Of a DNA stretch of 19,442 nt, positions 583-19,442 are shown in pieces. The notes under the pieces are model-generated. The model saw only the letters and a program-made list of their open reading frames with translations. It searched no databases and had not been told where the DNA came from. The stretch lies in the IMG/VR virus record IMGVR_UViG_2609459832_000003, positions 1-19,442 of that record; one strand, 5' to 3'. Made by a program: the position numbers and the translations under genes. This stretch comes from a virus. Taxonomy: Duplodnaviria; Heunggongvirae; Uroviricota; Caudoviricetes. Numbering within the stretch: the first letter of the stretch is position 1; the number at the start of each line of letters is the position of its first letter.

Positions 583-605
583 AGCGGCTCTCCTTTTATT
601 TTATG

Positions 606-3607: not shown

Positions 3608-4686
3608 CAGAACGGGTCCTCCTGTACTCTGGCTTTTTTCTTTTTCCGCGCGCCGGGAGCCTCGGGTTCAGGCAGATAAGCATCAGGCGGGCCGACACGG
3701 ATTTCCGTCAGGGTGCCGTTCTGGTCCTGAGTAAACGTGACTTCCGAGACAAGCAGTTCGGTATTGTCGAAACCACAGACCGGATCAAAGACAATCACCC
3801 GCTGGTTGGGCTGCCACAGCGTACCGTTACCCTGTCGCCAGCCCTGCACCACATAGGTGGTTTCATCCGTCCGCGCCGCCCGTTGTCGGGCTTCAAAGTC
3901 AGCACGGGCAATACAACCTGCCCCCGTAGCCTGCCCTGTCTGCCTGATATACATCGGACGGTAACGGGCAATAAATGCGTCCTCTGTGCGGGCCCTCAGC
4001 GCGGTGGTGGTGGCCTCACCGAAATCATCGTCGTTTCCGGCACGCTGCCCCGCCACCTGGTAAACAGAAAACCGCTCCCGGACACTCTTCTCCGTATCGC
4101 AGGAAAGGATGTTTTCCCCGAGCACCAGCGCAGTATGCGCCCGCGTTGAGCCAATACCGCCAATCACCAGCCTGCCGTGCGGGTCGTCGTAAGCCAGTGC
4201 CTGCTGCTGACCGAGTATTTTGTTGATTACCTCAATCACCGTTTCACCATGATCGGGCTGGACGTCAGGAATAACACCCGACGGCGCACCGCTGTTCACC
4301 ACCTCAATGCCGAAGGGCGCAGCAAGCGCCTGCGCAATCTGTACCAGCGATCGTCCGTTAAACTGTGTCGGTTCGGCTGCACAGTCAATCAGGTCAGCAG
4401 TCAGACTACGTCCGGCAATACCGGTGCTGACCGAACGGGCATCGTAACGAACGGGGGTCGCCTCCACCCAGCCGGTGATCACCAGTTCATCACCAATCAG
4501 CACCTCCACTTTTGAACCGTTTTTAATGCGCGGCTGAAGCGTGGTGATACCCTCACCCCCCGGCCACTGGCGGGTGATCTCCACACTGAAATCCCGTGCC
4601 AGCCGTTCAATACCGGCACCGATGCGCACCGATGTCCAGCCATTCCACTCCCGGCCATTTACCCGTAGCGTGACATTGTCGTTCAT
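3607..4686 (-). CDS. Tail/baseplate hub protein (Mu gp44 'P' / P2 gpD-like)
   Basis: 359-aa ORF immediately after the DNA-circulation gene (ATGA overlap at 4683-4686), as in Mu gp43-gp44. Confidence 0.7.
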   Translation of the reverse strand: MNDNVTLRVNGREWNGWTSVRIGAGIERLARDFSVEITRQWPGGEGITTLQPRIKNGSKVEVLIGDELVITGWVEATPVRYDARSVSTGIAGRSLTADLIDCAAEPTQFNGRSLVQIAQALAAPFGIEVVNSGAPSGVIPDVQPDHGETVIEVINKILGQQQALAYDDPHGRLVIGGIGSTRAHTALVLGENILSCDTEKSVRERFSVYQVAGQRAGNDDDFGEATTTALRARTEDAFIARYRPMYIRQTGQATGAGCIARADFEARQRAARTDETTYVVQGWRQGNGTLWQPNQRVIVFDPVCGFDNTELLVSEVTFTQDQNGTLTEIRVGPPDAYLPEPEAPGARKKKKARVQEDPF

Positions 4687-6011
4687 TGCACTGGCACCTT
4701 CAGAGGGATCACCGGCACAAAGCCGGGATGCGTAATGGCATTACGCCGGATAATGTCCTCGTCACGCGCCGCGTTATCAAACCAGGTCGCCGCCAGCACC
4801 AGCGCGGGTAAAACCTCATCCGGTGTGCGCTGAATGATCCGTGCAGACTGTTCAAGGCGCGTGTTGATATCCGCATTCAGATCTGCTTTCACCCGGCGCA
4901 GCGCCAGAAACAGCGCATCACTGGTTGTACGGGACAACTCCTTATCAATTGCCGTATTCAGTGTGTCGCGAATGTCGGTCAGTTCTTCCCACGTCGGCAG
5001 GTCAACCGTGTTTTTCACCGCCGGTGCATTGTTCAGTGCCGGATGCGTGACGGAAGGCCAGCCAGTGCTCTGCGCAGGTGTTGTTGCCTGCCCCACTGTG
5101 GCATTCTGCATCACTGCGGAAGTTGTTGGCGCAGGCAATCGGGTGACGGCATACGCCGCTTCGCTGATTGCGGTCGTACGAAGGGTGCTGGCAACCACGT
5201 TACGCTGCTGCGTCGCCGTGGCGGTAGTTTTACTGTCCGTTTTCCAGATGCCGCGCGGTTGCAGATCGCTGCCGAGGCTGACACCGGAAAGCGTTTTGAT
5301 CATGGTGACAAGGTCGCTGGCGTTACCATAAAGGCGTTTCCCGGTACGCCACATTTTCTGCACCTGCTCAACGAAATTTTTGCCTGACGATGGTGGCGGC
5401 AGAAGTACCGAGATATCCCCCTGCAACAGCCTGGCAGCATCCGATACGGCAGAATCCACCACTTTCATCGCATCAGAAACATACCCAAGCATTGTGCTGG
5501 CATTACCTACGACGTCGTTCTGCACAAAATCTGCCACGCCATCGATACTGAAACCACTGAAGCTGTCACTGATGCAGTCATCCAGTGCAGAACAGGATGA
5601 CATCAGCGTCTGCGCCGTCGCCGCACCTGAAGTGGGGTAAGAGAGTTCTCCCGCTTCGACAAACTTCAGGTCAAAGCGGACAATACGCCCTTCGCTCTTC
5701 GATGTGCTGACCCGAACCTCCCCGTCAACACAGACTTTCAGCTCACCGTATGTCGGATGGACAAGCGTGCCGGGACCGGGTTTATTCAGCGCGTCAATCA
5801 GGCGATCGCGCTGGTCAAAGCAGTCATCTCCCACCACATAAGCCGTGATGGACGGGCGGAAAGTGATTTTCCCCAGGTCTTCGGTATAGGGTTTGTCACG
5901 GTTCGGGTATTCGTGCGTTTCCACACGACGACCGGTTCCCGCACTTTCTTCTTCAACCTTAAACGGCACGCCGCGAAATGACGCGTCCTGAAGTCTGTCT
6001 TTCCACGTCAT
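4683..6011 (-). CDS. DNA circulation protein (Mu gp43 'N' family)
   Basis: N-terminus MTWKDRLQDASFRGVPFKV...GRRVETHEYPNRDKPYTEDLG matches the conserved DNA-circulation N-terminal domain. 442 aa. GGAG Shine-Dalgarno 6 nt upstream of the ATG at 6011. Confidence 0.8.
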   Translation of the reverse strand: MTWKDRLQDASFRGVPFKVEEESAGTGRRVETHEYPNRDKPYTEDLGKITFRPSITAYVVGDDCFDQRDRLIDALNKPGPGTLVHPTYGELKVCVDGEVRVSTSKSEGRIVRFDLKFVEAGELSYPTSGAATAQTLMSSCSALDDCISDSFSGFSIDGVADFVQNDVVGNASTMLGYVSDAMKVVDSAVSDAARLLQGDISVLLPPPSSGKNFVEQVQKMWRTGKRLYGNASDLVTMIKTLSGVSLGSDLQPRGIWKTDSKTTATATQQRNVVASTLRTTAISEAAYAVTRLPAPTTSAVMQNATVGQATTPAQSTGWPSVTHPALNNAPAVKNTVDLPTWEELTDIRDTLNTAIDKELSRTTSDALFLALRRVKADLNADINTRLEQSARIIQRTPDEVLPALVLAATWFDNAARDEDIIRRNAITHPGFVPVIPLKVPVQ

Positions 6012-6026
6012 ATAAACTCCGGATAC

Positions 6027-6082
6027 AAAAAACCCGCCAAATCTGCTTTGTCAGTTATTTACAGCGCAGAAGATGTGGCGGG
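6027..6082 (-). terminator. Rho-independent terminator at the 3' end of the AT-rich moron
   Basis: On the minus strand, CCCGCCA (rc of 6076-6082) pairs with UGGCGGG (rc of 6033-6039), with further AUCU/AGAU pairing inside, followed directly by U6 (rc of the A-run 6027-6032). It lies 20 nt after the moron stop codon and just before the gp43 ribosome-binding site. Confidence 0.6.
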
Positions 6083-6101
6083 AATCTAATATTTTTAATT
6101 A

Positions 6102-6596
6102 CTATCTGAGTTGAACATCAATGGAATAAACATCACCACTCTTTATAAATTTAGAATCTGTCCTTTCATCAAAAGATTCAAATGACTGTACATTTAAAAA
6201 CTTTTTCATTTTATTTTCAAAAATACTTTCATTAACACCAGTTAAATATTTGAATGCTCTACCAGCAAGGACCTCATTACTTAAATCCATTGTGTTTTTA
6301 TTGTCTTTGAAAAACCAAACAATAACCTTTTGTGGGCATGATGGATTATAAACAGATATATAAAACTGCGGCTCATATTTTTCATCAGCATCATCACTGA
6401 GCATTTCTTCAGAAGATAATTCTCTTCTGAATTCATATTGCCGCTTAGTGATTCCTTCATCCTTTATTATCTCTTGCTTAACTGGTGCAATACCTATAGA
6501 AGAGATTAATTCTGACTCATTAAAGTTGAACTTACACTCTTCCGCAGCCAAGTTAAAAGATAAAAGTGCAGATATAAAAAAAACAAAGATACGCAT
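6102..6596 (-). CDS. Hypothetical secreted (signal-peptide) protein of unknown function, encoded by an AT-rich moron
   Basis: Complete ORF, stop at 6102. Longest ORF starts at 6614 (MIEGMIM...), but the ATG at 6596 has a GAAGGG Shine-Dalgarno 6 nt upstream and gives a textbook signal peptide: MR + IFVFFISALLSF + NLA/AEE. Very AT-rich codon usage unlike all neighbours. Two Cys in the mature part. No family recognised from memory. Confidence 0.7.
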   Translation of the reverse strand: MRIFVFFISALLSFNLAAEECKFNFNESELISSIGIAPVKQEIIKDEGITKRQYEFRRELSSEEMLSDDADEKYEPQFYISVYNPSCPQKVIVWFFKDNKNTMDLSNEVLAGRAFKYLTGVNESIFENKMKKFLNVQSFESFDERTDSKFIKSGDVYSIDVQLR

Positions 6597-6626
6597 AATC
6601 ATCCCTTCAATCATTTGTAAGGAATG

Positions 6627-6658
6627 ATTATATTAACTACTTAAAGCTGAAAAGCCAA
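6627..6658 (-). promoter_or_regulatory. Candidate sigma70-type promoter for the moron gene
   Basis: On the minus strand: TTGGCT (rc of 6653-6658), 17-nt spacer, TAATAT (rc of 6630-6635), overlapping a perfect TATAAT (rc of 6627-6632). Sits in the 81-bp AT-rich gap between the tape-measure stop and the moron ORF. Predicted start site would give a ~25-nt leader to the 6596 ATG. Confidence 0.35.
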
Positions 6659-6695
6659 ATCATGCCAGACAAAAACACATTAATCATTTTGTACA

Positions 6696-8528
6696 CTACC
6701 TGAACCGCGTATAGCCAACATCATGGCTGACATCAAAACCGCTGGATCGCGTTTCCATAACCCGCATACCCGGAGGCGAATTCACAAAAGAGACCTTGAT
6801 CTCACCATCAACTTTTGGCACAAAAGCTTTGTTAATCATGAAGGGATTCGGGCCTGTGGCATCGGAGGCGTTGTTTGACTGAGCCGGATCTACCGCCGGA
6901 TAAGGTGTGTATCCCCGCGCCGGTATTCCCGTCCCATAAGCATCATAAGCACCCGCGCCCCACTGCGCAGAGTTAATGGCATCGACCGTGTCACCGGAAC
7001 TGTCGGTAAACCACTCAATAATGGGCTTCAGCTTGTCCCACATATCCTGAAACCACTTAACAACCGGCCCCCAGTTATTGATCACCATTCCCAGCGGCGA
7101 CCAGGCAAAAACTTTCTTAAGGAGTTCCCAGCCAGCCTCAAAATAAGGACCAATGGTTTCCCAGAGCTTCTTAAAATAAGGTCCGACAACATCCCAGTTA
7201 GTGATAATTAATCCCGCAGCCAGAGCAATCGCCGTCGCAATCATGCCAATCGGCGTCATCGACATGATCCTGCTGACAATACTGATGGCACCGCCCACGC
7301 CCATCAATCCCAGTTTCAGAATCGCAAGACCGGCAGCAAGCCCGACGATGCCGCGAATAACCCGGGGATTTTCATCCGCAAACTTCGTGAATTTTTCCCC
7401 CAACTCCCCCAGCCATTGCGTGATATTTTTGGCGTCACCAGAAAATGCGCCGCCAATAGCCGCAAGGCCGTTAGTTGCGGTCCCTGTCATTGCCTCCCAC
7501 AGATTGGACAGCGTACCAAGCTGTGCCTGAACACGTTTATTCAGGCTGGCCTGTTTATTCATCTTCTGCTGGATCTGATCGTAACCATCCTTTCCTTTAT
7601 CGATCAGAGCATTGACCACCTGAAGGGTTTCGGCATCATCACCAAATATTGCCTTAAGTACACCTGTTCGCTTAACGTCGGTCAGTTTTCGCAGCTTTGC
7701 CAGTTGCTTAAACATGTTATCAAGACCGCCAAAACTCCCTTTGCCGTCAGTAAAATCGAGCTGCACTCCGAGTTTCTGGCGGGCCATGACTTTATTGACG
7801 TCCCTGATTTTCTTAACGCTTAATCCGGACTGGATAACTTTTCGCAGGGCGTTACCTGCCGACTCCCCGTTCATCCCCATCTGATCCATCATGACGCTGA
7901 TGGGGGCAAGGCTCTGTGCAGCCTGAAGACCGTCCTTGTTCACCATCTTCAGAACAGAGCTGGTTTTAGTGAAGAAGGACAACATGTTGGTATCGTCAAC
8001 GCCCAGATAAAACGCCTTCTGGATAGTGTCGAACAGCCCCATCATGTCTTCTGACGCCGTTCCGGTAGCATCCTGCATCTTTGCGGCAAACTCGGCAGCC
8101 GCTTCCGGTGTTTTTTTCAGTTGTACCGCAAGATAAGCTGTCGCTTTACCCACACCGCCAAGAATGTTTTCTGCCGGGATCCCCTGACGCACCAGCATCT
8201 GCATCATGTTCTGGAAATCAGCCGTTGTACCGGGTAGCTGGTTACCCAGGCCAATAGCCAGTTTATTGATGTCCTGAAAGCGCTTTCCAACCTCGCCGTT
8301 CGCATCCATCATGGCGACTTTCAGCCCGGTGGCGGCGTTTTCCTGATCGGCATAAGATTTCAGGGAAAGCGTCAAACCCGCTGCCAGTCCGCCACCAAGC
8401 GCCAGCCCACCCTGTGACGCTTCTTCCGCCTGGCGTTTAAATCCCCGGATTTTCTTTTGCATTTTCGACAGCGCGGGAGAAAGCCTGTCGACACCGGTGA
8501 TCAACGCCTTAAGCTCAAATTCAGCCAT
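6696..8528 (-). CDS. Tail tape measure protein
   Basis: 610-aa ORF after the chaperone/frameshift pair. Central hydrophobic stretch and periodic aromatic residues (NWDVVGPYFKKLWETIGPYFEAGWELLKKVFAW...WFQDMWDKL) are typical of tape-measure proteins. Gly/Ala-rich. Confidence 0.85.
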   Translation of the reverse strand: MAEFELKALITGVDRLSPALSKMQKKIRGFKRQAEEASQGGLALGGGLAAGLTLSLKSYADQENAATGLKVAMMDANGEVGKRFQDINKLAIGLGNQLPGTTADFQNMMQMLVRQGIPAENILGGVGKATAYLAVQLKKTPEAAAEFAAKMQDATGTASEDMMGLFDTIQKAFYLGVDDTNMLSFFTKTSSVLKMVNKDGLQAAQSLAPISVMMDQMGMNGESAGNALRKVIQSGLSVKKIRDVNKVMARQKLGVQLDFTDGKGSFGGLDNMFKQLAKLRKLTDVKRTGVLKAIFGDDAETLQVVNALIDKGKDGYDQIQQKMNKQASLNKRVQAQLGTLSNLWEAMTGTATNGLAAIGGAFSGDAKNITQWLGELGEKFTKFADENPRVIRGIVGLAAGLAILKLGLMGVGGAISIVSRIMSMTPIGMIATAIALAAGLIITNWDVVGPYFKKLWETIGPYFEAGWELLKKVFAWSPLGMVINNWGPVVKWFQDMWDKLKPIIEWFTDSSGDTVDAINSAQWGAGAYDAYGTGIPARGYTPYPAVDPAQSNNASDATGPNPFMINKAFVPKVDGEIKVSFVNSPPGMRVMETRSSGFDVSHDVGYTRFR

Positions 8529-8703
8529 GTGTGCGTTTCTCCTGCTCTATCCTGTTTGCCTGACTGACCAGCAAGGGAATTTCACTGATCGGCATATTCA
8601 GCAATTCGAAGGGATTAATGCGCCAGTAGCTGGCGCAGTCAAAGAAGCGATCAGTGAGGTATTCAGCCGTCAGGCCTGGAGGAAAAAACCAGCCACAAGC
8701 CAC
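8521..8703 (-). CDS. -1 frame C-terminal extension of the tail assembly chaperone (expressed as a fusion by programmed frameshift, not as a separate gene)
   Basis: ORF in the -1 frame relative to the chaperone, overlapping its last ~11 codons and ending 5 nt before the tape-measure ATG. Slippery heptamer at the overlap (see 8682-8688). Confidence 0.65.
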   Translation of the reverse strand: MACGWFFPPGLTAEYLTDRFFDCASYWRINPFELLNMPISEIPLLVSQANRIEQEKRTHG

Positions 8704-8939
8704 GCCGCTGCATTCAGGTCTGCCGGAGACATCTGGTCGACAGAGCTTTGCGGCACTTTCGCCAGCCGCACAATGTATTTCGACACCACATGCGCCAGAA
8801 GTCTGACGGACTCATCCTGATTCATCTGGTAGGGATACCCCAGCTCGCGGACATCCTTCCCGGTGGGCTCATCAAACTCCAGTACGGAGAGTGTCTCGCC
8901 ATGAGCAGTAATCGGTTTCTTTAACTCAAGCTCTTTCAT
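8670..8939 (-). CDS. Tail assembly chaperone (lambda G-like role; Mu gp41-like position)
   Basis: 89-aa ORF between tube and tape-measure genes. Start overlaps the tube stop (TAATG at 8937-8941). Ends 3 codons after a slippery site. Confidence 0.7.
   Translation of the reverse strand: MKELELKKPITAHGETLSVLEFDEPTGKDVRELGYPYQMNQDESVRLLAHVVSKYIVRLAKVPQSSVDQMSPADLNAAAWLVAGFFLQA
8682..8688 (-). promoter_or_regulatory. Programmed -1 ribosomal frameshift slippery heptamer T_TTT_TTC
   Basis: Minus-strand sequence GCU GGU UUU UUC CUC CAG GCC UGA. The zero-frame codons TTT TTC form an X_XXY_YYZ heptamer; a -1 slip reads TTT TTT CCT CCA GGC... into the 8521-8703 ORF. Confidence 0.65.
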
Positions 8940-9295
8940 TACTGGTAATCCCCTTCTTCACCGTGGAACTCAAGATCAACCGTGCCTTCTTCGGCATTAT
9001 GGTTCGCTTCGCCGTGCAGCCAGGCAGACGACAGTACATAGACCTGACCGTTCGCCAGCTCGGCAGTGATGGTCATCTCATCAGACGAGGTGATTTTGCC
9101 CACCGGAAAATTCTTCGGCACCTTGAAGGTCCCTTTGACATAAGGCGCACGGTGAGTTTCCTTGCGGTCCACTGAACCGTCCAGGCCGATGATGTCATCA
9201 TTGACCGTCCTGTTCATGGGCACCTCAATGCCGCCGGTCAGCGATAGCTGCTGACCGTCAATTTTGAAATAACAGGTTCCCCCGATACGGGCCAT
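8939..9295 (-). CDS. Tail tube protein (contractile tail; Mu gp40 'M'-like)
   Basis: 118-aa ORF immediately after the sheath gene (TAATG overlap at 9293-9297). Size and synteny. Confidence 0.75.
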   Translation of the reverse strand: MARIGGTCYFKIDGQQLSLTGGIEVPMNRTVNDDIIGLDGSVDRKETHRAPYVKGTFKVPKNFPVGKITSSDEMTITAELANGQVYVLSSAWLHGEANHNAEEGTVDLEFHGEEGDYQ

Positions 9296-10791
9296 TATGC
9301 AGACTCCTCTGAATACTGAAGACGGAACTGGTTAACCACGGCAAAGACACGCAACTGGTTAACATAGTCAGGCGGGAACAGCGTGTTCAGGCGATTTGGA
9401 TCGCTGGCATCACGCTCCACAACCAGGTACTGCTTGAACAGTTCGTAGTTTTCCACGATCCCCGCACGCTCGAGCTGACGGTAGGTTGCCAGCAGTTCCC
9501 CTTTGATCACCGCCGGGGTGACAATCGCCTGACCGGGACCAAAGCGGGTACCGTCACTGGCAAGCTTGTGACGCCCGTACTTACTGGTAATGACGGATTT
9601 CAGTTTGCGCAGTACATACGCACTGGTATGCAGCGTCTCGCTGTCGAGGTAGCTGTTATCCGCAACCCCGTAAGCGTTTTTCCTGTACGTGGTGACATCA
9701 CGCTGAATGCGCAGCACCCCGCTTTCGACATACGCCGTTGCCACGCCATGAGACAGCAGGGTCTGCTGCTCGGTCATCGTGAACCGTTTCCCCTTCGGCG
9801 CAGGCAGCATACCCACCAGCTCACCGGTCTGCGTGGGACGTGCCGGATCGTTGCGGATAAACACTGCCGCGCGGGCGGTACGGCTGGCTGCCAGCTCGTC
9901 GGCAGGCGTCTGGGGGTCTTTTTCGTACCCCGCCAGGGTAATGTGCTGCTGGTTAAACTGGTCACCTGCGGTCACCAGTTCTGACAGCGTGCCGGTCTTT
10001 GCCGTATACACATGACCATACAGCTGACGCGCATAGCTCCAGCGACCGCTGGTATCGTTCATCTCGGTCACCAGCGTGTTAACGGAGGCCGTGTCGCTGA
10101 ACGGCAGGCCGATATAATCAAACGGCTCATCCGCCATTGCAGCCACCGCGCCGGTGAGAACAGGAGCGCCCGTTCCGGCGGTACCCGTCGCCACGGCAAT
10201 CTGTACGCCCGCTGGCAGCACTTCGCCCCCACCAAAGCCGTAGTAATTGAGGCTGACAGGAATTTCATTCCCGCAAAGCCCCTTATGACGCGCGGTCAGT
10301 GTGACCACGCCTGCCGAAGATGAAGCCGTAAACGGCAGGGTCGGAACGGCATTGATGGCATCCTGGATACTGCTGGCAATCATCGTGACGTTATCGCCGT
10401 TAGTCACCGGTGCCTGCACGCGGGTACGTCCCACATACACATTCACCGTGCCGGTTTCGGTTGCCGCCCCGGTCACCGTCAGCGTAACCGTTGCCGCCGC
10501 GCCTGTGGATTCAGGAACGGCAATCACATACAGCTCGCCAAACGGGTCAGTCTGGCGATAAGCCTCGACCATACGCGCCAGCTGACTTCCCGCACCACAA
10601 ATCTGGCGTGCATAGTCTGCCGACGGCATCAGTACCAGACTGTTGGCAACAATCTCTGCACCGTTATTGGCATGACCAATCAGCAGCGATGCTCCGCTGT
10701 CCTGTGCAGTATTCGCCGCCTGGTTATCCATTTCCGCATAAAACAACGGAACCAGCGTATTCGACGGAATGGTGTTAAAGCTTATCGTCAT
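9295..10791 (-). CDS. Tail sheath protein (contractile tail; Mu gp39 'L'-like)
   Basis: 498-aa ORF followed by tube, chaperone and tape measure. Size and synteny characteristic of myovirus sheath proteins. Confidence 0.85.
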   Translation of the reverse strand: MTISFNTIPSNTLVPLFYAEMDNQAANTAQDSGASLLIGHANNGAEIVANSLVLMPSADYARQICGAGSQLARMVEAYRQTDPFGELYVIAVPESTGAAATVTLTVTGAATETGTVNVYVGRTRVQAPVTNGDNVTMIASSIQDAINAVPTLPFTASSSAGVVTLTARHKGLCGNEIPVSLNYYGFGGGEVLPAGVQIAVATGTAGTGAPVLTGAVAAMADEPFDYIGLPFSDTASVNTLVTEMNDTSGRWSYARQLYGHVYTAKTGTLSELVTAGDQFNQQHITLAGYEKDPQTPADELAASRTARAAVFIRNDPARPTQTGELVGMLPAPKGKRFTMTEQQTLLSHGVATAYVESGVLRIQRDVTTYRKNAYGVADNSYLDSETLHTSAYVLRKLKSVITSKYGRHKLASDGTRFGPGQAIVTPAVIKGELLATYRQLERAGIVENYELFKQYLVVERDASDPNRLNTLFPPDYVNQLRVFAVVNQFRLQYSEESA

Positions 10792-10945
10792 CGGTATTCA
10801 CCTTTTTATTCACGCGCCGGATATCACCCGCTGCTTCACGGCGCAGCCAGTAGTTGTTCTCGTCAACATTTCGCCCTTCGGCGGGCAAAAGGTCGCCGCG
10901 GGCAGGGTCAGGCACTGACCGCCCTTTAACAGGTTTGACAAACAT
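10775..10945 (-). CDS. Small conserved pre-sheath protein (56 aa; recalled as DUF2635-like)
   Basis: Not in the ORF track (below 60 aa). ATG at 10943-10945 with GAGGA 5 nt upstream; stop TAA at 10775-10777 overlaps the sheath start. Translation MFVKPVKGRSVPDPARGDLLPAEGRNVDENNYWLRREAAGDIRRVNKKVNTDDDKL resembles, from memory, small proteins found upstream of sheath genes in Mu-like tail clusters. Confidence 0.5.
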   Translation of the reverse strand: MFVKPVKGRSVPDPARGDLLPAEGRNVDENNYWLRREAAGDIRRVNKKVNTDDDKL

Positions 10946-10953
10946 GAGGATCC

Positions 10954-11514
10954 TCAGGAAGGAAGGGTTATTACGGTGTGATGTTCGATATCGCCGTCAG
11001 GCCCGTTACCGGGCTCGAGATAATCAACATCAATCGCCAGCGTTTGCAGTTCATCCAGACTGTTCAGATCATCCTGCTGGCGGGTATCGTCTTCAGTCAG
11101 CTCGCTGATGACCGAAAAATCGAACTGATAAATCAGCTCATGACGATTCAGATCCAGCAGCGTGCCGCCGTCATAGGTAATCGGGTTACCGCACGCTTCC
11201 GGGTTCCAGCCCAGCAGGGCCTTAAAGAGCATCTGCCGGACATCGTCCACCACATCATACGAGGCAAACTGACCGCGCTCATCACGCCCGTTACTCAGTA
11301 TGACAACCACGGAGAAGGCCTCTTTCAGCTCCTGCCAGTAGTCGGTCTGGCTTTTGTTTTCTCCCGGAGAGTCATCCCCCGGTACCACATACGCCGCCGG
11401 GAGTCTCAGCTTTCCGACCTCCGGCAGATTTTTGAACTGTGCCGCGCCTGCCACCCGGTTTTCAAAACACGGGCAGCGAGCACGCAGCGCAGCAATAACA
11501 GGCGTCAGTTTCAT
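10954..11514 (-). CDS. Virion/tail-completion protein (Mu gp37 / DUF1834-like)
   Basis: 186-aa acidic ORF between the head-tail joining genes and the pre-sheath/sheath genes. ATGA overlap with the upstream gene. Assignment rests mainly on synteny. Confidence 0.5.
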   Translation of the reverse strand: MKLTPVIAALRARCPCFENRVAGAAQFKNLPEVGKLRLPAAYVVPGDDSPGENKSQTDYWQELKEAFSVVVILSNGRDERGQFASYDVVDDVRQMLFKALLGWNPEACGNPITYDGGTLLDLNRHELIYQFDFSVISELTEDDTRQQDDLNSLDELQTLAIDVDYLEPGNGPDGDIEHHTVITLPS

Positions 11515-12017
11515 CTGCGTCGTCGCTCCGGCTTCAGTGATTTACGTAATTCCCGCGCCAGAAAATAGCGTGTCCAGCTGCGGTTCTTTTCAAGCGTTTC
11601 CACCATAAAGTTATTACGTGGAGCCAGCCGCCAGCCGCTGCCACCGGATGCACCACGATGATGACTACGACGACGTTTTGCTCCTCCCCGGACACCAAAA
11701 AACAGAAACGCCGGATAGAAGTCACCAGAGATCATCCGGTTCCCCTTCCCGTTGCGCTGGTTAGGGGCAATGCGTGTCATAAAACCGGCTCGCTTTTTAC
11801 TGGCTCTCGGCACCATATAACCAATCGAACGAGCCAGGCGTCCGGTCTGATAACCGGGGTTTTCACCCGGTGCCGACCGCGCACGGCGCATCACCAGCCG
11901 TCGGGCATCACGCATATGACGCTGACCAATCGTGACAAACGCCCGCCGGACACGGGCGCGGTTAAAGCGCATCTCCGCGGGCTGCTGAACATCAACGTGC
12001 AAAAAGGAAGTCGCCAT
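11511..12017 (-). CDS. HK97 gp10-family head-tail joining / virion morphogenesis protein
   Basis: 168-aa very basic ORF following the head-closure gene. Position and size fit the HK97 gp10 family. Confidence 0.55.
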   Translation of the reverse strand: MATSFLHVDVQQPAEMRFNRARVRRAFVTIGQRHMRDARRLVMRRARSAPGENPGYQTGRLARSIGYMVPRASKKRAGFMTRIAPNQRNGKGNRMISGDFYPAFLFFGVRGGAKRRRSHHRGASGGSGWRLAPRNNFMVETLEKNRSWTRYFLARELRKSLKPERRRR

Positions 12018-12402
12018 TGTTGCCTCCGTGACTCTGCGTAAATTCGCCCAGCTCCGTACACTCCAGCAGCAGAAAGCGCCGCGCCCCGTTCAGATCACGC
12101 TGACGTTTCACCCGGTACACACTGTCATCACAGACCACCTCATAATCAGCAGTGATCCCCCGGCGGTAACGAATGGTGATGTAATGGGTGATGGCGTCCC
12201 CGGTCTGCGCGGTTTCCTGCCAGGTGGTGGCACTGGTCTGGATAACCTTCGCCCATGTCCGGAACGTAACCGGGTATTGAGGCTCCACGCCAAAGTTATC
12301 CGCGGGCATATCCACCCGCTGGCGGAGCAGGACGCGTTTATTCAGTTCGCCGGGGTCCGGCAGCATGTAGGTTGCGCTGGTCTGCGCCTGACGAATTTTC
12401 AT
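11992..12402 (-). CDS. Head closure / head-tail adaptor protein
   Basis: 136-aa ORF directly after the gp6-like connector gene (ATGA overlap at 12399-12402). Synteny of the HK97-type head-tail joining set. Confidence 0.55.
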   Translation of the reverse strand: MKIRQAQTSATYMLPDPGELNKRVLLRQRVDMPADNFGVEPQYPVTFRTWAKVIQTSATTWQETAQTGDAITHYITIRYRRGITADYEVVCDDSVYRVKRQRDLNGARRFLLLECTELGEFTQSHGGNNGDFLFAR

Positions 12403-12722
12403 TGCGGAAAGTACCTGTACGGGCCGACAAGCCAGCCAAAACTCTGCGGCATGTCGAGTTTCTCCACTTCCGTAACCGACGAGCGGTTTTCGTAAAAATG
12501 GCTGATAAGCATCAGCATCCCCAGACGAATATCATCCGGCAGGTGCAGCCCGTCCGGATCGCTGTCCGGAATGGATTCATCCGGTGCATAGAGCTTCCGG
12601 TTCAGATACGTTTCCGTCCGCTTTTGCGCCGCACAGGCCAGCAGTTGCAGATGGCGGTCATCAGCATCGAAATCCTCATCCAGCCGGAGTTGGGCTTTAA
12701 TCTCTTCCATTGTCAGAAGCAT
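12399..12722 (-). CDS. Head-tail connector protein (gp6-like)
   Basis: 107-aa ORF (MLLTMEEIKAQLRLDEDFDADD...) downstream of the capsid gene. Size and position typical of gp6-like connector proteins. Confidence 0.6.
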   Translation of the reverse strand: MLLTMEEIKAQLRLDEDFDADDRHLQLLACAAQKRTETYLNRKLYAPDESIPDSDPDGLHLPDDIRLGMLMLISHFYENRSSVTEVEKLDMPQSFGWLVGPYRYFPQ

Positions 12723-12724
12723 AC

Positions 12725-12925
12725 TCAGCTCTCTTTACTGGTCGTGGCTTTTTTCTCTTTTGCCGCTTTACTGCTTTTTGCACTGGTTCCGCGCTCAGCT
12801 AACCCGGCCTGAAGTGCAATCTCCTGCACCCGGGCAGGAAGCGCCCCGTCGTCATACTCACCGGCCCGAATGACCTCAACACGCATACCGTCCGGTGACC
12901 ATTTCAGATCTTGTTTCAGGATCAT
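12725..12925 (-). CDS. Small hypothetical protein with a Lys/Ser-rich C-terminal tail
   Basis: 66-aa ORF between the major capsid and connector genes. Stop overlaps the next start (TGAGTATG). No family recognised. Confidence 0.4.
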   Translation of the reverse strand: MILKQDLKWSPDGMRVEVIRAGEYDDGALPARVQEIALQAGLAERGTSAKSSKAAKEKKATTSKES

Positions 12926-12947
12926 GATTCTTCACCCGTCAGAACAG

Positions 12948-12967
12948 GGGGCGCGGTTCCGCGCCCC
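12948..12967 (-). other. GC-rich hairpin just downstream of the major capsid gene
   Basis: GGGGCGC (12948-12954) / GCGCCCC (12961-12967) inverted repeat with a 6-nt loop, 8 nt after the capsid stop codon. No U-run follows. Confidence 0.5.
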
Positions 12968-12974
12968 TGAATGA

Positions 12975-14180
12975 TTACGCCGCTGCAATCTTCAGCAGTT
13001 TGATGGCCTGCGAATCGACCAGCATCCCGCCGGTGCGCTTGGTGGTATAAAAACCGACAAACGGTTTATTGGTGTACGGGTCACGCAGAATGCGGGTGCC
13101 GATACGGTCAACGATGGTGTAACCCCGTTTGAAGTTACCAAATGCAATGGCTTTCGCATCAGCGGCGATATCCGGCATCTGTTCGTTTTCAGCGATACCG
13201 TAACCCGCCAGAGAGGACGGCTGCCCCAGCTCCAGCCCCGGACGCCACAGATAGTTACCCTCGCTGTCTTTCAGCAGACGGATGGCAAACAGGCTGTTGT
13301 TGTTCATCATGAACTTCGCGCCAGTGCGGTGTGCCTTACGCAGCGTGTAAATCAGTTTGATAATGGCGTCTGCGGTCACCGCAGTCGCTTCGCCGGATAC
13401 AATATGCTGAAGTTTGCCGAACGCCCGGACCTTGTCGGTTTCATCAGTGGATTCATACGCCAGGAACCCTTTCGGCTTCTTGGTGCCATCGCCTGAGGTA
13501 AAGGCAATTTCTTCCTGTTCGGCAAATTCGGTTGCCAGCTCGCTGTTGATCCAGGCCTCCACGTTGAAAAAGGCATCATCCAGCATTTTCTGGGTGGCCT
13601 GCGGGTTGCCGTAAATTTCCCCCATGAGAGGTTCAATCAGCTCCAGTCTGGAGGTGGCAGTCTGGGATCGCGTATCCGTTTCCCCCACCCATCCGGAAGC
13701 CGTACCGCCCAGATTCACCAGTTTTTTGTAGTCGGAACCGCCAACGGTGATCACCGTGGCTTCCTGACGCATCACCACTTCATCTTTCAGCAGGTTAAGA
13801 ATGTTGCGATCCAGTTCTTCCGGCACGGCGTAGCCACCGTCTTCATCGGTACCCACCTGCAATGCCTTACGCTCCAGATCGCGCAGACCGTCTTCACGGC
13901 CTTTACGCAGGAAGCCCACAAACGCCTCTTTATGCTCGGTGGCCAGTTTATTTTGCGCTCCACCAGCCGGACGTTTCAGCTCAAGCAGCTCTTTTTCAAG
14001 GTCGCTTTTGAGATTTTCCAGCTCGCTGAGTTTCCCGTTCAGGGTTTCCACCTGCCCGGCAAGCTTGCCTTTTTCCTGCTCAATCGCATCCACGCGCTTG
14101 TCGTTCTTTGCTTTGAAGTCGTCAAACTTCTGCTGCAGCTCCTGCGCGACCTGTTCGACATCTTTAATATCAACCGCCAT
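12975..14180 (-). CDS. Major capsid protein, HK97 family, with N-terminal coiled-coil delta (scaffold) domain
   Basis: 401-aa ORF. The first ~100 aa are highly charged and coiled-coil-like (QELQQKFDDFKAKNDKRVDAIEQEKGKL...LEKELLELK), followed by a capsid fold region. Sits directly after the prohead protease. Confidence 0.9.
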   Translation of the reverse strand: MAVDIKDVEQVAQELQQKFDDFKAKNDKRVDAIEQEKGKLAGQVETLNGKLSELENLKSDLEKELLELKRPAGGAQNKLATEHKEAFVGFLRKGREDGLRDLERKALQVGTDEDGGYAVPEELDRNILNLLKDEVVMRQEATVITVGGSDYKKLVNLGGTASGWVGETDTRSQTATSRLELIEPLMGEIYGNPQATQKMLDDAFFNVEAWINSELATEFAEQEEIAFTSGDGTKKPKGFLAYESTDETDKVRAFGKLQHIVSGEATAVTADAIIKLIYTLRKAHRTGAKFMMNNNSLFAIRLLKDSEGNYLWRPGLELGQPSSLAGYGIAENEQMPDIAADAKAIAFGNFKRGYTIVDRIGTRILRDPYTNKPFVGFYTTKRTGGMLVDSQAIKLLKIAAA

Positions 14181-14194
14181 CGTATTTCTCCTGA

Positions 14195-14845
14195 TTAGAA
14201 GTTCAGATTTTTCAGTGCATTCAGTGCAGAACCCACATCCTCAGCGTCGCGCAGGGACAGTGCGCCATAGCCCCCGGCCATGAATGCTTTGGCCTGGGTA
14301 CGGGAGAGTCCGACATCACGCAGGACTCTTTCGATTTTTTTCTGTTCGGGGATTTCCCCGCGGGCCAGTGCGTTCTTGACGTCGCTGATCCGCGCCTCGT
14401 CGTTAGACGGGAACGTCACCAGGCTGACTTCCCAGAGGTCGATTTCTTTCAGCAGAAAGGCTTCTTTGCTCCGGTCGTATTCCCAGTCTTTCAGGACGTA
14501 CCCAATAGAAAGGCCGGTTAACGAACCGGCCTTCATGTGTGCATGTGCGCGTTTTGCGAGGGGATCATCATCAATAAGCAACCGTCCCCTGACGTAAAGC
14601 CCGACATCGTCTTCCTTCATTTCGGTGTAAACACCGATGGGTTCATCCATGCGGTGCTGCCAGAGCAGCGCAGGTAACGCTTTTCTGTCACTCCACGCCC
14701 GCAGGGAAGCAGCAAATGCCCCGGACATCACCACATCATCGTGGCTGTCCTTTACACCAAAGACGGAGCCATACCCTTCAAACTCACCGGAGTCACTGAC
14801 AGATTTCAGACTCAGCGGTACATCAAGACGTTGTTTCGTCTGCAT
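14195..14845 (-). CDS. Prohead maturation protease (HK97 family)
   Basis: The ORF extends to 14881, but the ATG at 14843-14845 has an AAGGA Shine-Dalgarno 8 nt upstream and avoids a 59-nt overlap with the portal gene. Sequence ...SGEFEGYGSVFGVKDSHDDVV... is typical of HK97-type proteases. Confidence 0.85.
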   Translation of the reverse strand: MQTKQRLDVPLSLKSVSDSGEFEGYGSVFGVKDSHDDVVMSGAFAASLRAWSDRKALPALLWQHRMDEPIGVYTEMKEDDVGLYVRGRLLIDDDPLAKRAHAHMKAGSLTGLSIGYVLKDWEYDRSKEAFLLKEIDLWEVSLVTFPSNDEARISDVKNALARGEIPEQKKIERVLRDVGLSRTQAKAFMAGGYGALSLRDAEDVGSALNALKNLNF

Positions 14846-16064
14846 TGGCGTTATCCTTCTGCTTACCGGCTTTACTGCCATCGGAGGGTTTCGTGGTCAT
14901 GTTCATCGGTGTGAGATAGACATCACCACCGGGACGCGGATTCATATCTTCCAGGTCGCGGCAGTCATTGGGAGAGTAAATTCCCCAGTTGATCCCGGTG
15001 GCGTAGGCTTCAAAACGGGACTTCATATCCCCGCGCAGTAACGCCCCGGCGTTAAATTTGGCGTAATAAACGCCCTGCTTACTTTTTCGTACCAGTCCGG
15101 TGTTGATCCGCTGTTCGATGCGGGTCAGATACGGCACCAGTGAATAGTTGATAAATCCCAGCCCCAGCTCTTCGATATTGTTGAAGGTGGCGCGATCGGT
15201 GTTCTGCACCATGTGCAACGGCACCCGGAACAGACGACAGATTTCTTCAAGCTGAAACTTGCGGGTTTCCAGGAACTGGCTGTCCTCGGCGTTCAGCGCC
15301 ATCGACTTCCAGTCCAGCCCCATCTCAAGGATCATCGGGCGGTGAGCATTGCCAAGCCCGGTGTGACGCTCCTCAAAATCTTTCTTCAGGCGCTCATAAG
15401 CCTGATCTGACAGCGTCTGCTCTGTACGCAACACACCCGACGTCACCGCGCCATTGCTGAACAGTCTGGCCCCGTGCTCTTCGGTCGCTGCCGCCAGCGA
15501 TATTGCCTCGCGGGCATAGGCGATGGGATTCAGCCCCACCAGTCCGTCCAGCGTCAGCGTGCGCACATGCCAGATATCCTCCTGGCTCAGTACATCCGTG
15601 GAGCCATCCGGGAATGTGACCTGATAGATCGGCTCCCAGCTACTGTTAAGCTTCGGTACCACACAGCCGGGATCGACGGGCAGCAGTTCAGCCACTTCGC
15701 CAAATGCTTTCACTTTGTAGGCGTAAAAGTTTCCCCGCAGGCACAGACAGGTGACCACCAGCTCCCAGAACTCCTGCGGCGTCATATAGCCATTGGGATG
15801 CGTGGAGATCAGTTTATGCAGACGTTCGCCGGTGGCTCTCTGCTTCAGGCTGCCGTTCAGGTGATACAGATTGCAGGGCAACATCCCGACCGACTCTGCC
15901 AGCACTCTGACGCAGGAAAAAACCGCCGTCAGTCGCATGGCCCGCTGACTGCTGATCTGCTTTCCGGTATAGGTGTCGTAGGACAACCCGATGGCATCCG
16001 CCAGCTCTGCTGGCGTGGTCACCGGTGCGTCACTTTTTCGTTGAAATAATCCCGAAAAGAACAC
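14823..16064 (-). CDS. Portal protein (HK97 family)
   Basis: 413-aa ORF between the terminase and protease genes. GTG start at 16062-16064 with GGAGG 6 nt upstream, overlapping the stop of the preceding small ORF (TAGTG). Confidence 0.9.
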   Translation of the reverse strand: MFFSGLFQRKSDAPVTTPAELADAIGLSYDTYTGKQISSQRAMRLTAVFSCVRVLAESVGMLPCNLYHLNGSLKQRATGERLHKLISTHPNGYMTPQEFWELVVTCLCLRGNFYAYKVKAFGEVAELLPVDPGCVVPKLNSSWEPIYQVTFPDGSTDVLSQEDIWHVRTLTLDGLVGLNPIAYAREAISLAAATEEHGARLFSNGAVTSGVLRTEQTLSDQAYERLKKDFEERHTGLGNAHRPMILEMGLDWKSMALNAEDSQFLETRKFQLEEICRLFRVPLHMVQNTDRATFNNIEELGLGFINYSLVPYLTRIEQRINTGLVRKSKQGVYYAKFNAGALLRGDMKSRFEAYATGINWGIYSPNDCRDLEDMNPRPGGDVYLTPMNMTTKPSDGSKAGKQKDNANADETTS

Positions 16065-16246
16065 TATTTACCTCCACCAACAGACAGCTGTGTACGATCG
16101 AGATATCGCGCTACCAGCCACGACCAGAACAGGCACAACGCCCCGGCAACAACAAACCCCGCCGGGGGATAAATCAGCCAGGCACCATACGCCAGCAAAA
16201 GCGCCCCCAGCACGCCCACCAGAGGCGCGAGAATCAGCATGATCAT
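16064..16246 (-). CDS. Small predicted membrane protein (two hydrophobic segments), function unknown
   Basis: 60-aa [52 protein letters not shown]... GAGGT Shine-Dalgarno 5 nt upstream of the ATG at 16246. Stop overlaps the portal start, so it is translationally coupled. Confidence 0.5.
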
Positions 16247-16257
16247 AATTACCTCAG

Positions 16258-17991
16258 TTAAAGCGAGCGGATCCCATAGGACTCAATGTGGTCAGACAGC
16301 GTGTCTTCTTTCTCGTACAGCATGGCTCTGCCAACCGCCATAATCAGCGCAACTGCACCGTCAATTTTGTTTTCCGCCTGCTCTTTGACGGGTTTCACCA
16401 CATCATCGTTACCCGGAATGGTTTTGCCGACCACATTGCCGATACACCAGGTCATGATGGGATTGCCATCATGATGAAAGCGCCCCGATTCAATTGCCGC
16501 TTCCAGCTCTTTCATCGGGTCGGACATGTTGGTGTAGTTCTGAATGATAGTGACGGGATTCAGGTCTTCATCAGCAAGGTCATGTGACAACCCGGTCGCC
16601 CCGAAGGGGTCGATGGGTGACTCACTGACCGGGCTGATTTTGTTCGCCGCTTTGGCCTCCTCGAGGATGTAGCGATAATCCACCTCCGCACCATCGGTAA
16701 CGGTCAGAACGCCCATTTCCACCCATTTCTGAAAGCGTTCGGCTGTCCGGCGATCTTCATTTTTCTCGACGCTGTACACCGTGTCATACGGTACCCAGAA
16801 GCGCGGAGCCACACTGTAGTAATGCGTTTTACCGTCAATCTCGCGGGTATAAAGTCGCGCCATGCTGTTCATATCCAGCTTACGCGCCAGGTCAAAGGCC
16901 AGAATGCACGGCTGCCCCTCGAACTGCTCAAGGGTCAGTGATTTATCCTCGCAGCTCTGCCAGCTCACCAGGTTGAAATACGCCGAACGCGCCGACACCC
17001 AGATATTGAGGTGTTTTGTTTTAAAGACGTTTGCCAGACGGGCGTTATTTTTCGCACGCTGCTGCTGACTTAACAAAAATTCGCGATAAACCGACACGCC
17101 AATATTTGGATTGGCTTTTTCCAGCACCTGCGGGTCGGTCCAGTCATCGCCTTCGTCAACGGTATAGATGATCCCGAACAGTTCATCGTTGGGTACCGAA
17201 CCGTTGAGCATCTCGATAACTTCCCGCCGCTTGTCGTAGCACGGCCCCTCAATGTTGTACCCGGCGGTGGTGATGGCCCACATCAGTGGCTGACGTCGCG
17301 CGCCCATCCCGGTAAGCATCGTGGTATAAAGCGCATCGGTGGCGTGCTCGTGATATTCATCCACCACGGAACAGTGGGGTGATGAACCATCACCGGGGTT
17401 ACCGATCAGCGGTTCAAACCGCGCGCCATCCTCCGGACGGTTCATGTTTGAGGCGTTAACCTCAATCCCGAACGCTTCCGTCAGCATGGGTGTGCGTTTA
17501 CACATCAGTCGCGCCGGGCGAAAGACTTCCCACGCCTGTTTCTCTGTCGTGGCACCGGAATACACTTCCGCGCCAAACTCGTTATCACAGGCAAAACAAT
17601 ACAGGGCAACACCGGCAGAGATTGCCGATTTGCCGTTCTTACGGGGGATTTCGGTATACACCTCCCTGAAGCGGCGCAGCCGGGGGCCTTTATAGACCCA
17701 GCCAAACGCACAGCAGATCACAAAGAGCTGCCACGGTTCCAGCGTGATGGGCATCCTCTTGAATGCCCACTCCCCCTTGGTGTGTGGCAACAGCTGAATA
17801 AATTTCGCGGCCCGTTCAGCCAGGTCCTTGTCGAAGCGGTAACGAAACGACTTACTTTTTTCCGCCATCAGGTCATCAAGATGGCGCTGGCAGGCCTGAA
17901 TCACAAACTGGCAGGCCACAATCTTTCCGCGCACGACATCCCGGGCATACTGATTGGCAGCATTTACGTTGGGGTAAGATTTCCGGCTCAT
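16258..17991 (-). CDS. terL: Terminase large subunit
   Basis: 577-aa ORF with a Walker A-like motif (IPRKNGKSA) in the N-terminal ATPase region. ATGA overlap with terS at 17988-17991. Followed by the portal gene. Confidence 0.9.
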
Positions 17992-18482
17992 GACTCGATA
18001 ATTTTCAGAAACGGGTTAGTGGCTTTCTTCTTCCCCGCCAGGCCAATCAGACGCTGGCGGCTGCTGGGGTCGAGTCCGAGCATTGCCCCCGTACTGCTCA
18101 TCTCGGACTCCTGTTCTTTTTTGGCGGTCAGCTCCGGATTTTTGACCATGCCGCCCATTGCACCGGTGATGGTGTTGCCCTGTCTGGCAATATTTTTCAC
18201 GGCACGTCGCCAGAACTCATAGGCCACGCACCACCGCTCAAGCACTGCGAGGTCAGTCACGCACAGCAGGCCCTGACCGCAGAGTTCTTTGGTTGTCAGT
18301 TGCCACATGATCGTGGCGAGAGGAAACTCTTCTTCAGCGAACCACTCCGGTGGCTCAACACCTTTGATGGGCGTAAAAACAGGTTCATCTTTGTTCAGGG
18401 CTCGCTTGCCGGGGTTTCCGGCCAGCTCCTTGCGCGCCGTTGGCTTAGGGCGACGCCCGGAACGCCCCGCCGTTCCAGCCAT
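17988..18482 (-). CDS. terS: Terminase small subunit (P27 family-like)
   Basis: The ORF-track start at 18491 is a GTG that overlaps the AGGAG Shine-Dalgarno. The ATG at 18480-18482 lies 8 nt after AGGAG and gives [27 protein letters not shown]..., typical of P27-type small terminases. Confidence 0.8.
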
Positions 18483-18532
18483 ATGCGGCACTCCTGGTTA
18501 AATTTCATTTTTCGCGGGTATAAAAAAACGAT

Positions 18533-18581
18533 GGGGCGGGCAGTCCGGAAGACGTCAGGTCACAGGGATTTGACCCGCCCC
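18533..18581 (-). other. GC-rich inverted repeat with downstream U-run in the HNH-terS intergenic region (terminator-like; possible cos/terminase recognition region)
   Basis: GGGGCGGG (18533-18540) and CCCGCCCC (18574-18581) form a perfect 8-bp inverted repeat with a 33-nt spacer containing the palindromes TCCGGA and GACGTC. On the coding strand the stem is followed by AUCG and U7 (rc of 18523-18529). Confidence 0.4.
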
Positions 18582-18607
18582 TCCCCTCTGTCAGTGGGAA
18601 CTGATTC

Positions 18608-18958
18608 TTACTTCAGCCGTTCACGGGCCGTCTTCGCCTTATGACACGGCCAGCACAGGCTCTGCAGATTACTGTCGGCATCAGAGCCGCCATGCGATTT
18701 CGGGATGATGTGGTCGACGGTTTTCGCCTCGCTCACCACACCGACACGCAGACACAACTGACACAGACCTTTATCGCGCTTCAGAATACGGGCACGAATC
18801 ACCGTCCATTTTGAGCCATAGCCACGCTGGTGGCGGCTCAGTCCGCGCTGGTGCTGCCCCCAGCCTTCACCGCGATGCTTATCGCAGTAACCCGAACTGT
18901 CTGTTGTTGTGCCTGCACATCCACGCTTACGACAGGCGCGGGGGATTCGTGATGGCAT
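18608..18958 (-). CDS. HNH endonuclease (terminase-associated)
   Basis: HNH/zinc-finger motifs CQLCL...DHIIPKSHGGSDADSNLQSLCWPCHKAKT. The ATG at 18956-18958 has an AAGGAG Shine-Dalgarno 6 nt upstream; the longer ORF-track start (19033) would read through an intergenic hairpin. Confidence 0.85.
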   Translation of the reverse strand: MPSRIPRACRKRGCAGTTTDSSGYCDKHRGEGWGQHQRGLSRHQRGYGSKWTVIRARILKRDKGLCQLCLRVGVVSEAKTVDHIIPKSHGGSDADSNLQSLCWPCHKAKTARERLK

Positions 18959-19019
18959 TGGAATCTCCTTAATACCGGCATTATCGCAGCCCCTCACTGA
19001 AGGGCTGCTGTAATGCCTG

Positions 19020-19316
19020 TTACTCAGTAACAACTGCGCCTTCCGGTAATTTCATACCGGCAAATACCGGACAACCCGGATGACGATCATCTTCTGTTGC
19101 TTCCAGCATTGACTCACCAAACCACTCCGTCGTGGCGCGACCATCAGCTGCTTTGTAGTGGATCAAGTACTGGTTTTCGCCATCCGTATACTGCGCGCGG
19201 GCTTTAACCTCACCCCATTCATCACTGATACGCATCTCCACCAGTTGAGACAACTCAAACTTAAACGGAGCAGCATCAGCACCAATTACAATCGGTTTGT
19301 TTTCTGTTTTTTCCAT
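19020..19316 (-). CDS. Hypothetical acidic protein upstream of the HNH/terminase genes
   Basis: ORF open to 19367, but AGGAG (rc of 19323-19327) precedes the tandem ATGs at 19319 and 19316 (MMEKTENKPIV...). No family recognised. Confidence 0.45.
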   Translation of the reverse strand: MEKTENKPIVIGADAAPFKFELSQLVEMRISDEWGEVKARAQYTDGENQYLIHYKAADGRATTEWFGESMLEATEDDRHPGCPVFAGMKLPEGAVVTE

Positions 19317-19442
19317 CATCGTCTCCTGATATCGAAGCCCGTCGCCGCACCGGGCACTGATCAACATTTGAGTATTCGCGGCGACAGAAAGAATTTATTT
19401 TATTGAGTAGCCACAAACACAGAATTTCATGCTTACCGGACG

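Follow-up and report, generated by a model that had tools for sequence, protein, structure and literature searches.

ymfR, a gene for a predicted two-helix membrane protein, is joined to the HK97-type portal gene in many phages of Proteobacteria

We analyzed a 19,442-nucleotide (nt) stretch of caudoviricete phage DNA (IMG/VR record IMGVR_UViG_2609459832_000003, positions 1 to 19,442; hereafter the window), focusing on a small open reading frame (ORF) of 60 amino acids (aa) on its minus strand, between the genes for the terminase large subunit (terL) and the portal protein. The ORF is, with near certainty, ymfR, a gene already catalogued (b1150, IPR020297, PHROG 502) with no function assigned to its family, and the same confidence covers the anatomy described below. 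Its host module is the HK97-type head module of an SfI/SfII/ST64B/e14-like temperate phage, in which ymfR is a genuine late gene. In mosaic phages ymfR is inherited with the portal gene and not with terL. YmfR is probably neither a holin nor a moron of the lysogenic-conversion kind. We tentatively propose that it acts late as an accessory factor of the inner membrane, dispensable and connected with the portal or prohead, a role that is possible but well below an even chance. Identity, anatomy, and this role, taken together as one blended statement, come nearer to an even chance without reaching it.

Identity, breadth, and membrane anatomy of ymfR

The ymfR-family ORF (16064..16246, minus strand) runs from an ATG start to a TAG stop as read from the window sequence (16246 to 16064). 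Residues 1–55 matched the profile phrog_502, labeled ‘membrane protein’ (E = 1.5e-27), and the gene carries the ymfR/b1150 annotation in Escherichia coli K-12 and the name ‘protein YmfR’ in PGAP. Scans of Pfam (E ≤ 0.1), NCBIfam, and PADLOC (E ≤ 1) assigned YmfR to no family, with Pfam giving a sub-threshold TctB match only, and no solved structure was matched when PDB sequences were searched with a profile. DNA identity was 94–98% to phages SfI, SfII, SfIV, 118970_sal3, and ST64B (gene sb3), and 84% to phiP27. The ‘putative integral membrane protein’ genes SfII_03, ST64B Sb3, and that of phiP27 are orthologues in the same position, with 84–98% DNA identity. YmfR (b1150) of the K-12 cryptic prophage e14 is the same 60-aa gene, with ~98% protein identity in e14-like remnant loci, and entries of serotype O16:H48, that of K-12, had ~96% DNA identity to the ymfR of the window. 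In e14, ymfR is flanked by truncated remnants of terL (ymfN) and of the portal gene (beeE), whereas the module in the window is intact.

The family extends well beyond these close relatives. PGAP annotated ‘ymfR: protein YmfR’ in 1368/5426 complete E. coli genomes, and a word-indexed search returned 166 YmfR relatives, nearly all 60 aa long and from Enterobacterales. In a larger search (1.84 billion cluster representatives), the YmfR profile recovered 386 clusters (50% identity) at E ≤ 1e-3, with lengths of 45–90 aa in nearly every case, and the family length was about 50–70 aa across these clusters. Distant members included those of an Alcaligenaceae metagenome-assembled genome (MAG) and Azospirillum phage Cd, and every distant member tested was assigned either to PHROG 502 or to its relative PHROG 7105. 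Carriers of the gene include myoviruses of the SfII type as well as the siphovirus PY54. Distant members are under-reported in our tblastn search of the phage collection because the low-complexity filter drops the first transmembrane (TM) segment. One match, L018 from a Defluviitaleaceae MAG, was rejected as a false positive within an ABC-transporter TM domain.

The family core reads h-h-G-h-x-G-x-x-L-x-S-Y-G-A-W-L-I-Y-x-P-A-G-F-I-V-x-G-x-L-L, followed by A-R. In a 50-sequence alignment G14 and G35 were invariant, and G21, W23, P28, and G30 were nearly so. The window protein has the family traits of two helices, a length of ~50–70 aa, and a W-x-x-Y-x-P-A-G turn. The first-pass annotation of this DNA had named a frame broken in close relatives as a refuting observation; frame and length were kept in homologues down to 55% identity. 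It had also regarded a membrane protein in a packaging module as unusual, on the premise that such modules run without membrane proteins. Neither the judgment nor the premise holds for this phage group, in which ymfR is frequent: the gene is in one quarter of complete E. coli genomes and hundreds of viral contigs.

YmfR is almost wholly hydrophobic, with a grand average of hydropathy (GRAVY) of 1.29, and its only charged residues are R47, D50, R51, and K60. Kyte-Doolittle means over 19 residues were 2.67 (residues 1–19) and 1.81 (residues 28–46), both above the classical threshold of 1.6. On the Hessa scale, the summed values were favorable for TM1 (−1.8 kcal/mol) and marginal for TM2 (about −0.1). 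AlphaFold2 (AF2), run on a 28-sequence alignment, placed helices at residues 2–25 and 27–57 with a mean predicted local distance difference test (pLDDT) score of 73. The two hydrophobic segments reported at first pass therefore survived TM prediction, with hydropathy above threshold and two AF2 helices.

Hydropathy, AF2, and conservation delimit TM helix 1 at codons 1–24 (16175..16246, minus strand), with conserved P8, G11, G14, G21, and W23, and TM helix 2 at codons 31–46 (16109..16156, minus strand), with the invariant G35 plus C38, W41, and S42. The tight turn between them, IYPPAG (codons 25–30; 16157..16174, minus strand), is part of W-x-x-Y-x-P-A-G, the motif with the highest conservation in the family, and is predicted to be periplasmic. 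The polar/basic C-terminal tail (codons 47–60; 16067..16108, minus strand) is predicted to be cytoplasmic and is variable in sequence save for a terminal G-G-(G/E). Mean Lys+Arg counts over 94 family members were 2.0 in the N-tail, 0.1 in the inter-helix turn, and 1.2 in the C-tail, and the positive-inside rule applied to these counts puts both termini in the cytoplasm and the turn in the periplasm. The predicted YmfR is thus an inner-membrane protein with both ends cytoplasmic and its W-x-x-Y-P-P-A-G turn at the periplasmic face, in which the invariant glycines G14 and G35 would pack the two helices against each other.

The dN/dS (ratio of nonsynonymous to synonymous substitution rates) of ymfR was 0.1–0.35 (Nei-Gojobori, 19 relatives), compared with 0.03–0.10 for portal and terL. 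Prophages of Mangrovibacter, Scandinavium, Erwinia, and Citrobacter had YmfR identities of 55–65%, with ~81% for the portal and mostly ~88% for TerL. Both comparisons indicate that the YmfR peptide is constrained, though less than the structural proteins.

Coupling and co-inheritance with the portal gene

The terL stop (TAA, 16260–16258) is followed by 11 nt, CTGAGGTAATT, that lead up to the ymfR ATG and contain a GAGG Shine-Dalgarno (SD) sequence (16252..16255, minus strand; read directly) 5 nt ahead of that start. This gap leaves ymfR no room for a promoter of its own, with its own SD just after terL, and a sequence scan of the region found no promoter-like site near the gene. At the other end, TAGTG (16062..16066, minus strand) holds the ymfR stop TAG (16066–16064) and the portal start GTG (16064–16062) with one G in common, and on this sequence it is a predicted termination-reinitiation junction from ymfR into the portal gene. 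The portal SD, GGAGG (16071..16075, minus strand; sequence GGTGGAGGTAAATAGTG), lies within ymfR codons G58–G59, and the ymfR 3′ end reads ...GGT GGA GGT AAA TAG. A strong SD-like word ahead of the portal start and inside the small ORF was present in 27/61 family members. The C-terminal glycines of YmfR are conserved at least partly because of the portal ribosome-binding site located there.

The composition of ymfR (GC 58.5%; GC at third codon positions, GC3, 64%) was like that of its flanking genes (54–58% and 60–68%, respectively). Four points of the first-pass annotation stand on this evidence: an SD of its own, with GAGG 5 nt before the ATG; a stop that overlaps the portal GTG by one base; a GC content, called host-like, that is in the range of the flanking genes; and probable expression with the late genes, since ymfR is part of the late head operon and is coupled there to the portal gene.

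The same arrangement recurred across the family. All of the 15 genomic loci had ymfR between terL and an HK97-type portal gene. The viral-contig scan, for which we used a narrower alignment, the broader one being too diverse, gave >585 confirmed loci, and the small ORF lay directly upstream of the portal ORF in all 80 that were fetched. Among 61 unique sequences, the distance from ymfR stop to portal start was −1 nt in 49, −4 nt in 7, and 0 in 2, so that 58/61 overlapped or abutted. About 13 loci had 300–1000 nt between terL and ymfR, and 1 locus only (L052) had an insertion between ymfR and the portal gene. The terL-ymfR inserts, presumably one extra gene each, were found in L031, L033, L034, L036, L037, L039, L044, L047, L048, L051, L063, L065, and L097; in these 13 viral contigs the small ORF was still joined to the portal start.

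Mosaic phages showed which neighbor ymfR travels with. Phage phi467 and several viral contigs had portal and ymfR in common with the window phage and an unrelated terL. SfV presented the reverse case, with a terL 97% identical to that of the window, a portal 27% identical, and a very different small protein. The mean YmfR distance was 0.15 over 23 locus pairs with close portals and unrelated terL, compared with 0.72 over 3 pairs with close terL and distant portals. The partial rank correlation of YmfR was 0.20 with the portal and −0.03 with TerL.

The similarity between the window and SfV ended ~80 nt before the terL stop (about 16261–16339 of the window), and the TerL protein match ended at residue 566/577. 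The extreme TerL C-terminus thus appears, from this alignment, to switch with ymfR and the portal, which would fit a portal-binding TerL tail.

ymfR is absent from HK97 and many other relatives, yet its presence was strongly clustered on the portal tree. On a neighbor-joining tree of 80 dereplicated portals, a sample biased in that half of the loci were chosen for carrying ymfR, its presence required 9 Fitch changes compared with 24 (minimum 18) in shuffles, and members occurred on all deep branches. This fits an old gene that was inherited with the portal and lost several times. Among 80 viral loci retrieved with portal sequences, a few (L100, L166, L169, and L170) had small two-TM ORFs in the same slot that were negative with the hidden Markov model (HMM); the L100 ORF matched PHROG 7105, like the SfV copy. 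A comparison of portal N-termini with and without ymfR was not informative, with a G-L-F-G-x-L-A-type start in both groups.

Surrounding genes and unannotated family members

Head module. The genes around ymfR are all on the minus strand, in the order HNH endonuclease, terS, terL, ymfR, portal, prohead protease, and major capsid. PHROG and Pfam matches identified the HNH endonuclease (18608–19033), just upstream of terS (18491–17988), followed by terL (16258..17991), the upstream neighbor of ymfR; the portal gene of HK97 type (14823..16064, PF04860); the prohead protease (14881–14195); and the major capsid protein (14180–12975). The HNH-terS-terL order recurred in many related loci, with 31 HNH matches among the 80 viral loci. 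The longest protease ORF (14881–14195) overlaps the portal 3′ end by 59 nt (14823–14881), and SfII annotates a 651-nt version; the true protease start is probably further downstream than that of the longest ORF.

Internal hairpin. A terminator-like hairpin of 12 pairs followed by TTTT (16201..16228, minus strand) lies inside ymfR codons 7–16 and is annotated in SfII as a ‘putative rho-independent terminator’. We rejected it as an internal terminator: the hairpin is present, but its fold z-score was −1.19 relative to shuffled sequences, and the region had 6 terminator-like sites compared with 4.8 expected. The hairpin probably arises incidentally from GC-rich Gly/Leu/Ala codons.

Annotation of orthologues. 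Database records of ymfR orthologues vary, calling the product a membrane protein, a hypothetical protein, or ‘head-tail joining protein W’, or having no annotation at all (SfIV and PY54, and the divergent SfV copy). PY54 (L181, NC_005069) has an unannotated family member at 2302–2491, in its 190-nt terL-portal gap, and SfIV (NC_022749) has an unannotated orthologue at about 2382–2483. SfV (L002, NC_003444) encodes an unannotated divergent member of 53 aa, MKSLIADVIGLAGFGLLTCGVYLQFGMAPALILSGALLLVGALAMARRGTRAA, with matches to PHROG 7105 (E = 3e-22) and, more weakly, to the YmfR profile (E = 4e-7). This member lies between terL (559–2292) and the annotated portal start (2392), overlapping the latter by ~59 nt; the true start of the SfV portal gene probably lies downstream of the annotated one. 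SfV had been a candidate for a relative without the gene, which the unannotated member overlapping the annotated portal start rules out.

Individual copies. A second prophage copy in Shigella flexneri SFBU0723 (L014, CP182557; 3001–3179) has a ymfR that is 1 nt short and split into two frames, with the adjacent terL and portal intact at 99% identity; it is either a pseudogene or a homopolymer sequencing error. The Edwardsiella hoshinae NBRC 105699 contig (L004) had the sole 100% identical small protein among the genome loci. That contig, a ‘Bacillota bacterium’ MAG (L006), and the 1764-bp record ‘Enterococcus phage Efm 3-10’ (OR844959) had DNA or proteins 93–100% identical to those of this enterobacterial phage module, and the Bacillota and Enterococcus labels of the latter two look like binning or contamination artefacts.

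Candidate roles of YmfR

A portal-linked role. Our tentative proposal of an accessory factor for the portal or prohead is drawn from the gene-order association, its independence from tail type and host genus, and a precedent in T4. YmfR would be made in step with the portal protein, would work from the inner membrane to influence the packaging site or the initiation of the portal or prohead, and may be a small membrane tether or organizer, after the membrane-built portal initiator of T4. That initiator is assembled on the inner membrane, aided by gp40 and YidC (PMC9958956). As for the timing of expression, ymfR of e14 rose about 4.5 log2 with other lytic genes under an SOS-inducing drug (PMC10012262). 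The likeness to the gp40/YidC-assisted gp20 initiator of T4 is conceptual, consisting of a phage-encoded helper and a portal assembled at the inner membrane (PMC9958956). Unlike YmfR, T4 gp40 has no TM segment and is not encoded beside the portal, and no profile similarity was found between the two proteins (hhalign probability 0.3%). A membrane step is not known for HK97-type phages.

Several observations weigh against the portal-linked role. The terL of HK97 overlaps the portal gene by 1 nt with no ORF between them. In the portal-seeded sample a member was detectable in 19/80 viral loci, each time immediately ahead of the portal gene, and in many of the other loci terL abuts the portal gene. 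Because HK97 and many relatives do without it, ymfR is no general requirement of HK97-type assembly. The dN of ymfR was 2–3 times that of the portal gene. Conservation falls on the glycines within the membrane and on the turn predicted to be periplasmic, and the predicted cytoplasmic tails, which would be able to touch a cytoplasmic portal, vary in sequence and length. The linkage itself could merely reflect an overlapping junction that offers no neutral recombination site. Our literature search found no functional study of ymfR; the mentions were gene lists, e14 deletions, and one transcriptome table.

A host-membrane role. The main rival reading, likewise possible but well below an even chance, is that YmfR is a late hairpin peptide that binds or modulates a conserved inner-membrane or periplasm-facing component of the host, with its place at the terL/portal junction incidental. 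Examples of equally tentative standing would be a late block of DNA entry by superinfecting phages, or stabilization of the membrane or proton-motive force until lysis. The strongest conservation of YmfR, in the membrane glycines and predicted periplasmic turn rather than the cytoplasmic tails, agrees with such a target, as do the repeated loss of the gene, its absence from HK97, and its faster evolution relative to the structural genes. PHROGs also places the family in the moron/host-takeover category, and T4 Imm, a small phage protein with two TM helices like YmfR, acts in this way according to its annotation. Imm has no sequence relation to YmfR, however (hhalign probability 0.2%), ymfR has no immunity context, and no PADLOC defense model matched at E ≤ 1. 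The position of ymfR at the portal is fixed across phages of Alpha-, Beta-, and Gammaproteobacteria and across tail types, whereas exclusion genes occur sporadically, as a rule close to immunity or tail genes and under a promoter of their own; no promoter was found near ymfR and its composition equals that of its neighbors. In e14 the gene was co-induced with lytic genes (PMC10012262) and is probably not expressed from the prophage. A classic moron is improbable: neither a promoter nor a terminator belonging to ymfR was found, its composition does not depart from that of the flanking genes, and its position is old and fixed.

Lysis timing. A holin, antiholin, or pinholin-like factor for lysis timing, expressed with the late genes, is very unlikely. 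The case for it is the late expression of ymfR together with small size, two TM helices, and a predicted topology with N and C termini inside, all in common with class II holins such as S21, to which YmfR has no sequence relation. The Pfam scan (E ≤ 0.1) matched no holin family, and the PHROG label is ‘membrane protein’ and not holin. No endolysin is adjacent: the neighbors of ymfR are terL and the portal gene, and across all genomes examined the locus was associated with the portal rather than with lysis genes. In SfII, 96% identical at this locus, a canonical S/R/Rz/Rz1 cassette follows Q, about 5 kb upstream. The C-terminal tail is also short and weakly charged. Its 14 residues hold 3 basic and 1 acidic residue in the window protein, many relatives have 1–2 charges only, and in many members the tail is just ‘AR’ plus a few residues. 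The small lysis factor suggested by the first-pass annotation is thus not supported: no holin family matched, no endolysin is adjacent, SfII has its lysis cassette elsewhere, and the tail looks weakly charged.

A translated spacer. Still harder to credit is that ymfR is a spacer or leader in which ribosome passage and reinitiation at the portal matter and the peptide is functionless. The stop/start overlap is the most constant feature of the family (58/61), the portal SD lies within the ymfR ORF, and HK97 gets the same coupling straight from terL. The dN/dS of ymfR, however, is well under 1, its length of ~50–70 aa is kept across 386 clusters, and phages with portals of only 34% identity still have in common the motif G-x-W-x-x-Y-x-P-A-G and the two invariant glycines. 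Purifying selection and a motif common to phages of Gamma- and Betaproteobacteria are at odds with the first-pass suggestion of a mere conserved spacer ORF.

A gpW-type protein. Lambda gpW is a soluble portal-binding head-completion protein. That YmfR is a head-tail joining protein of this type has a negligible chance: like gpW it is small and has the map position of lambda W, between the A and B genes, and ON470603, ON470584, ON470580, and PQ793804 carry the label ‘head-tail joining protein W’, but the two share no sequence similarity, no Pfam family matched (gpW, PF02831, included), the PHROG label is ‘membrane protein’, and a GRAVY of 1.29 with a predicted TM hairpin is incompatible with a soluble neck protein. 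The label appears to have been carried over from lambda by map position.

Implications. ymfR was already catalogued, and the window adds no new entity. What our analysis adds is that the family is old, widespread, under selection, and tied to the HK97-type portal by an overlapping stop/start, and that it is probably not a holin or a classic moron and is not a gpW homologue. In practical terms, several database records mislabel ymfR as ‘head-tail joining protein W’ or miss the gene (SfV, SfIV, and PY54). Why a cytoplasmic head-assembly module should include a conserved membrane protein is a minor puzzle. If YmfR were a late exclusion or membrane-conditioning peptide, it would be one more small phage membrane effector; if it linked portal or prohead assembly to the membrane, it would be of interest to specialists in phage assembly. 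The boldest form of the latter, with YmfR anchoring or organizing the portal at the membrane in a large group of proteobacterial HK97-type phages, is improbable. Were it true, the inner membrane would be where the portal ring nucleates, the prohead is initiated, or the packaging site lies, as in T4, and YmfR would be a missing player in building exactly one portal into HK97-like proheads.

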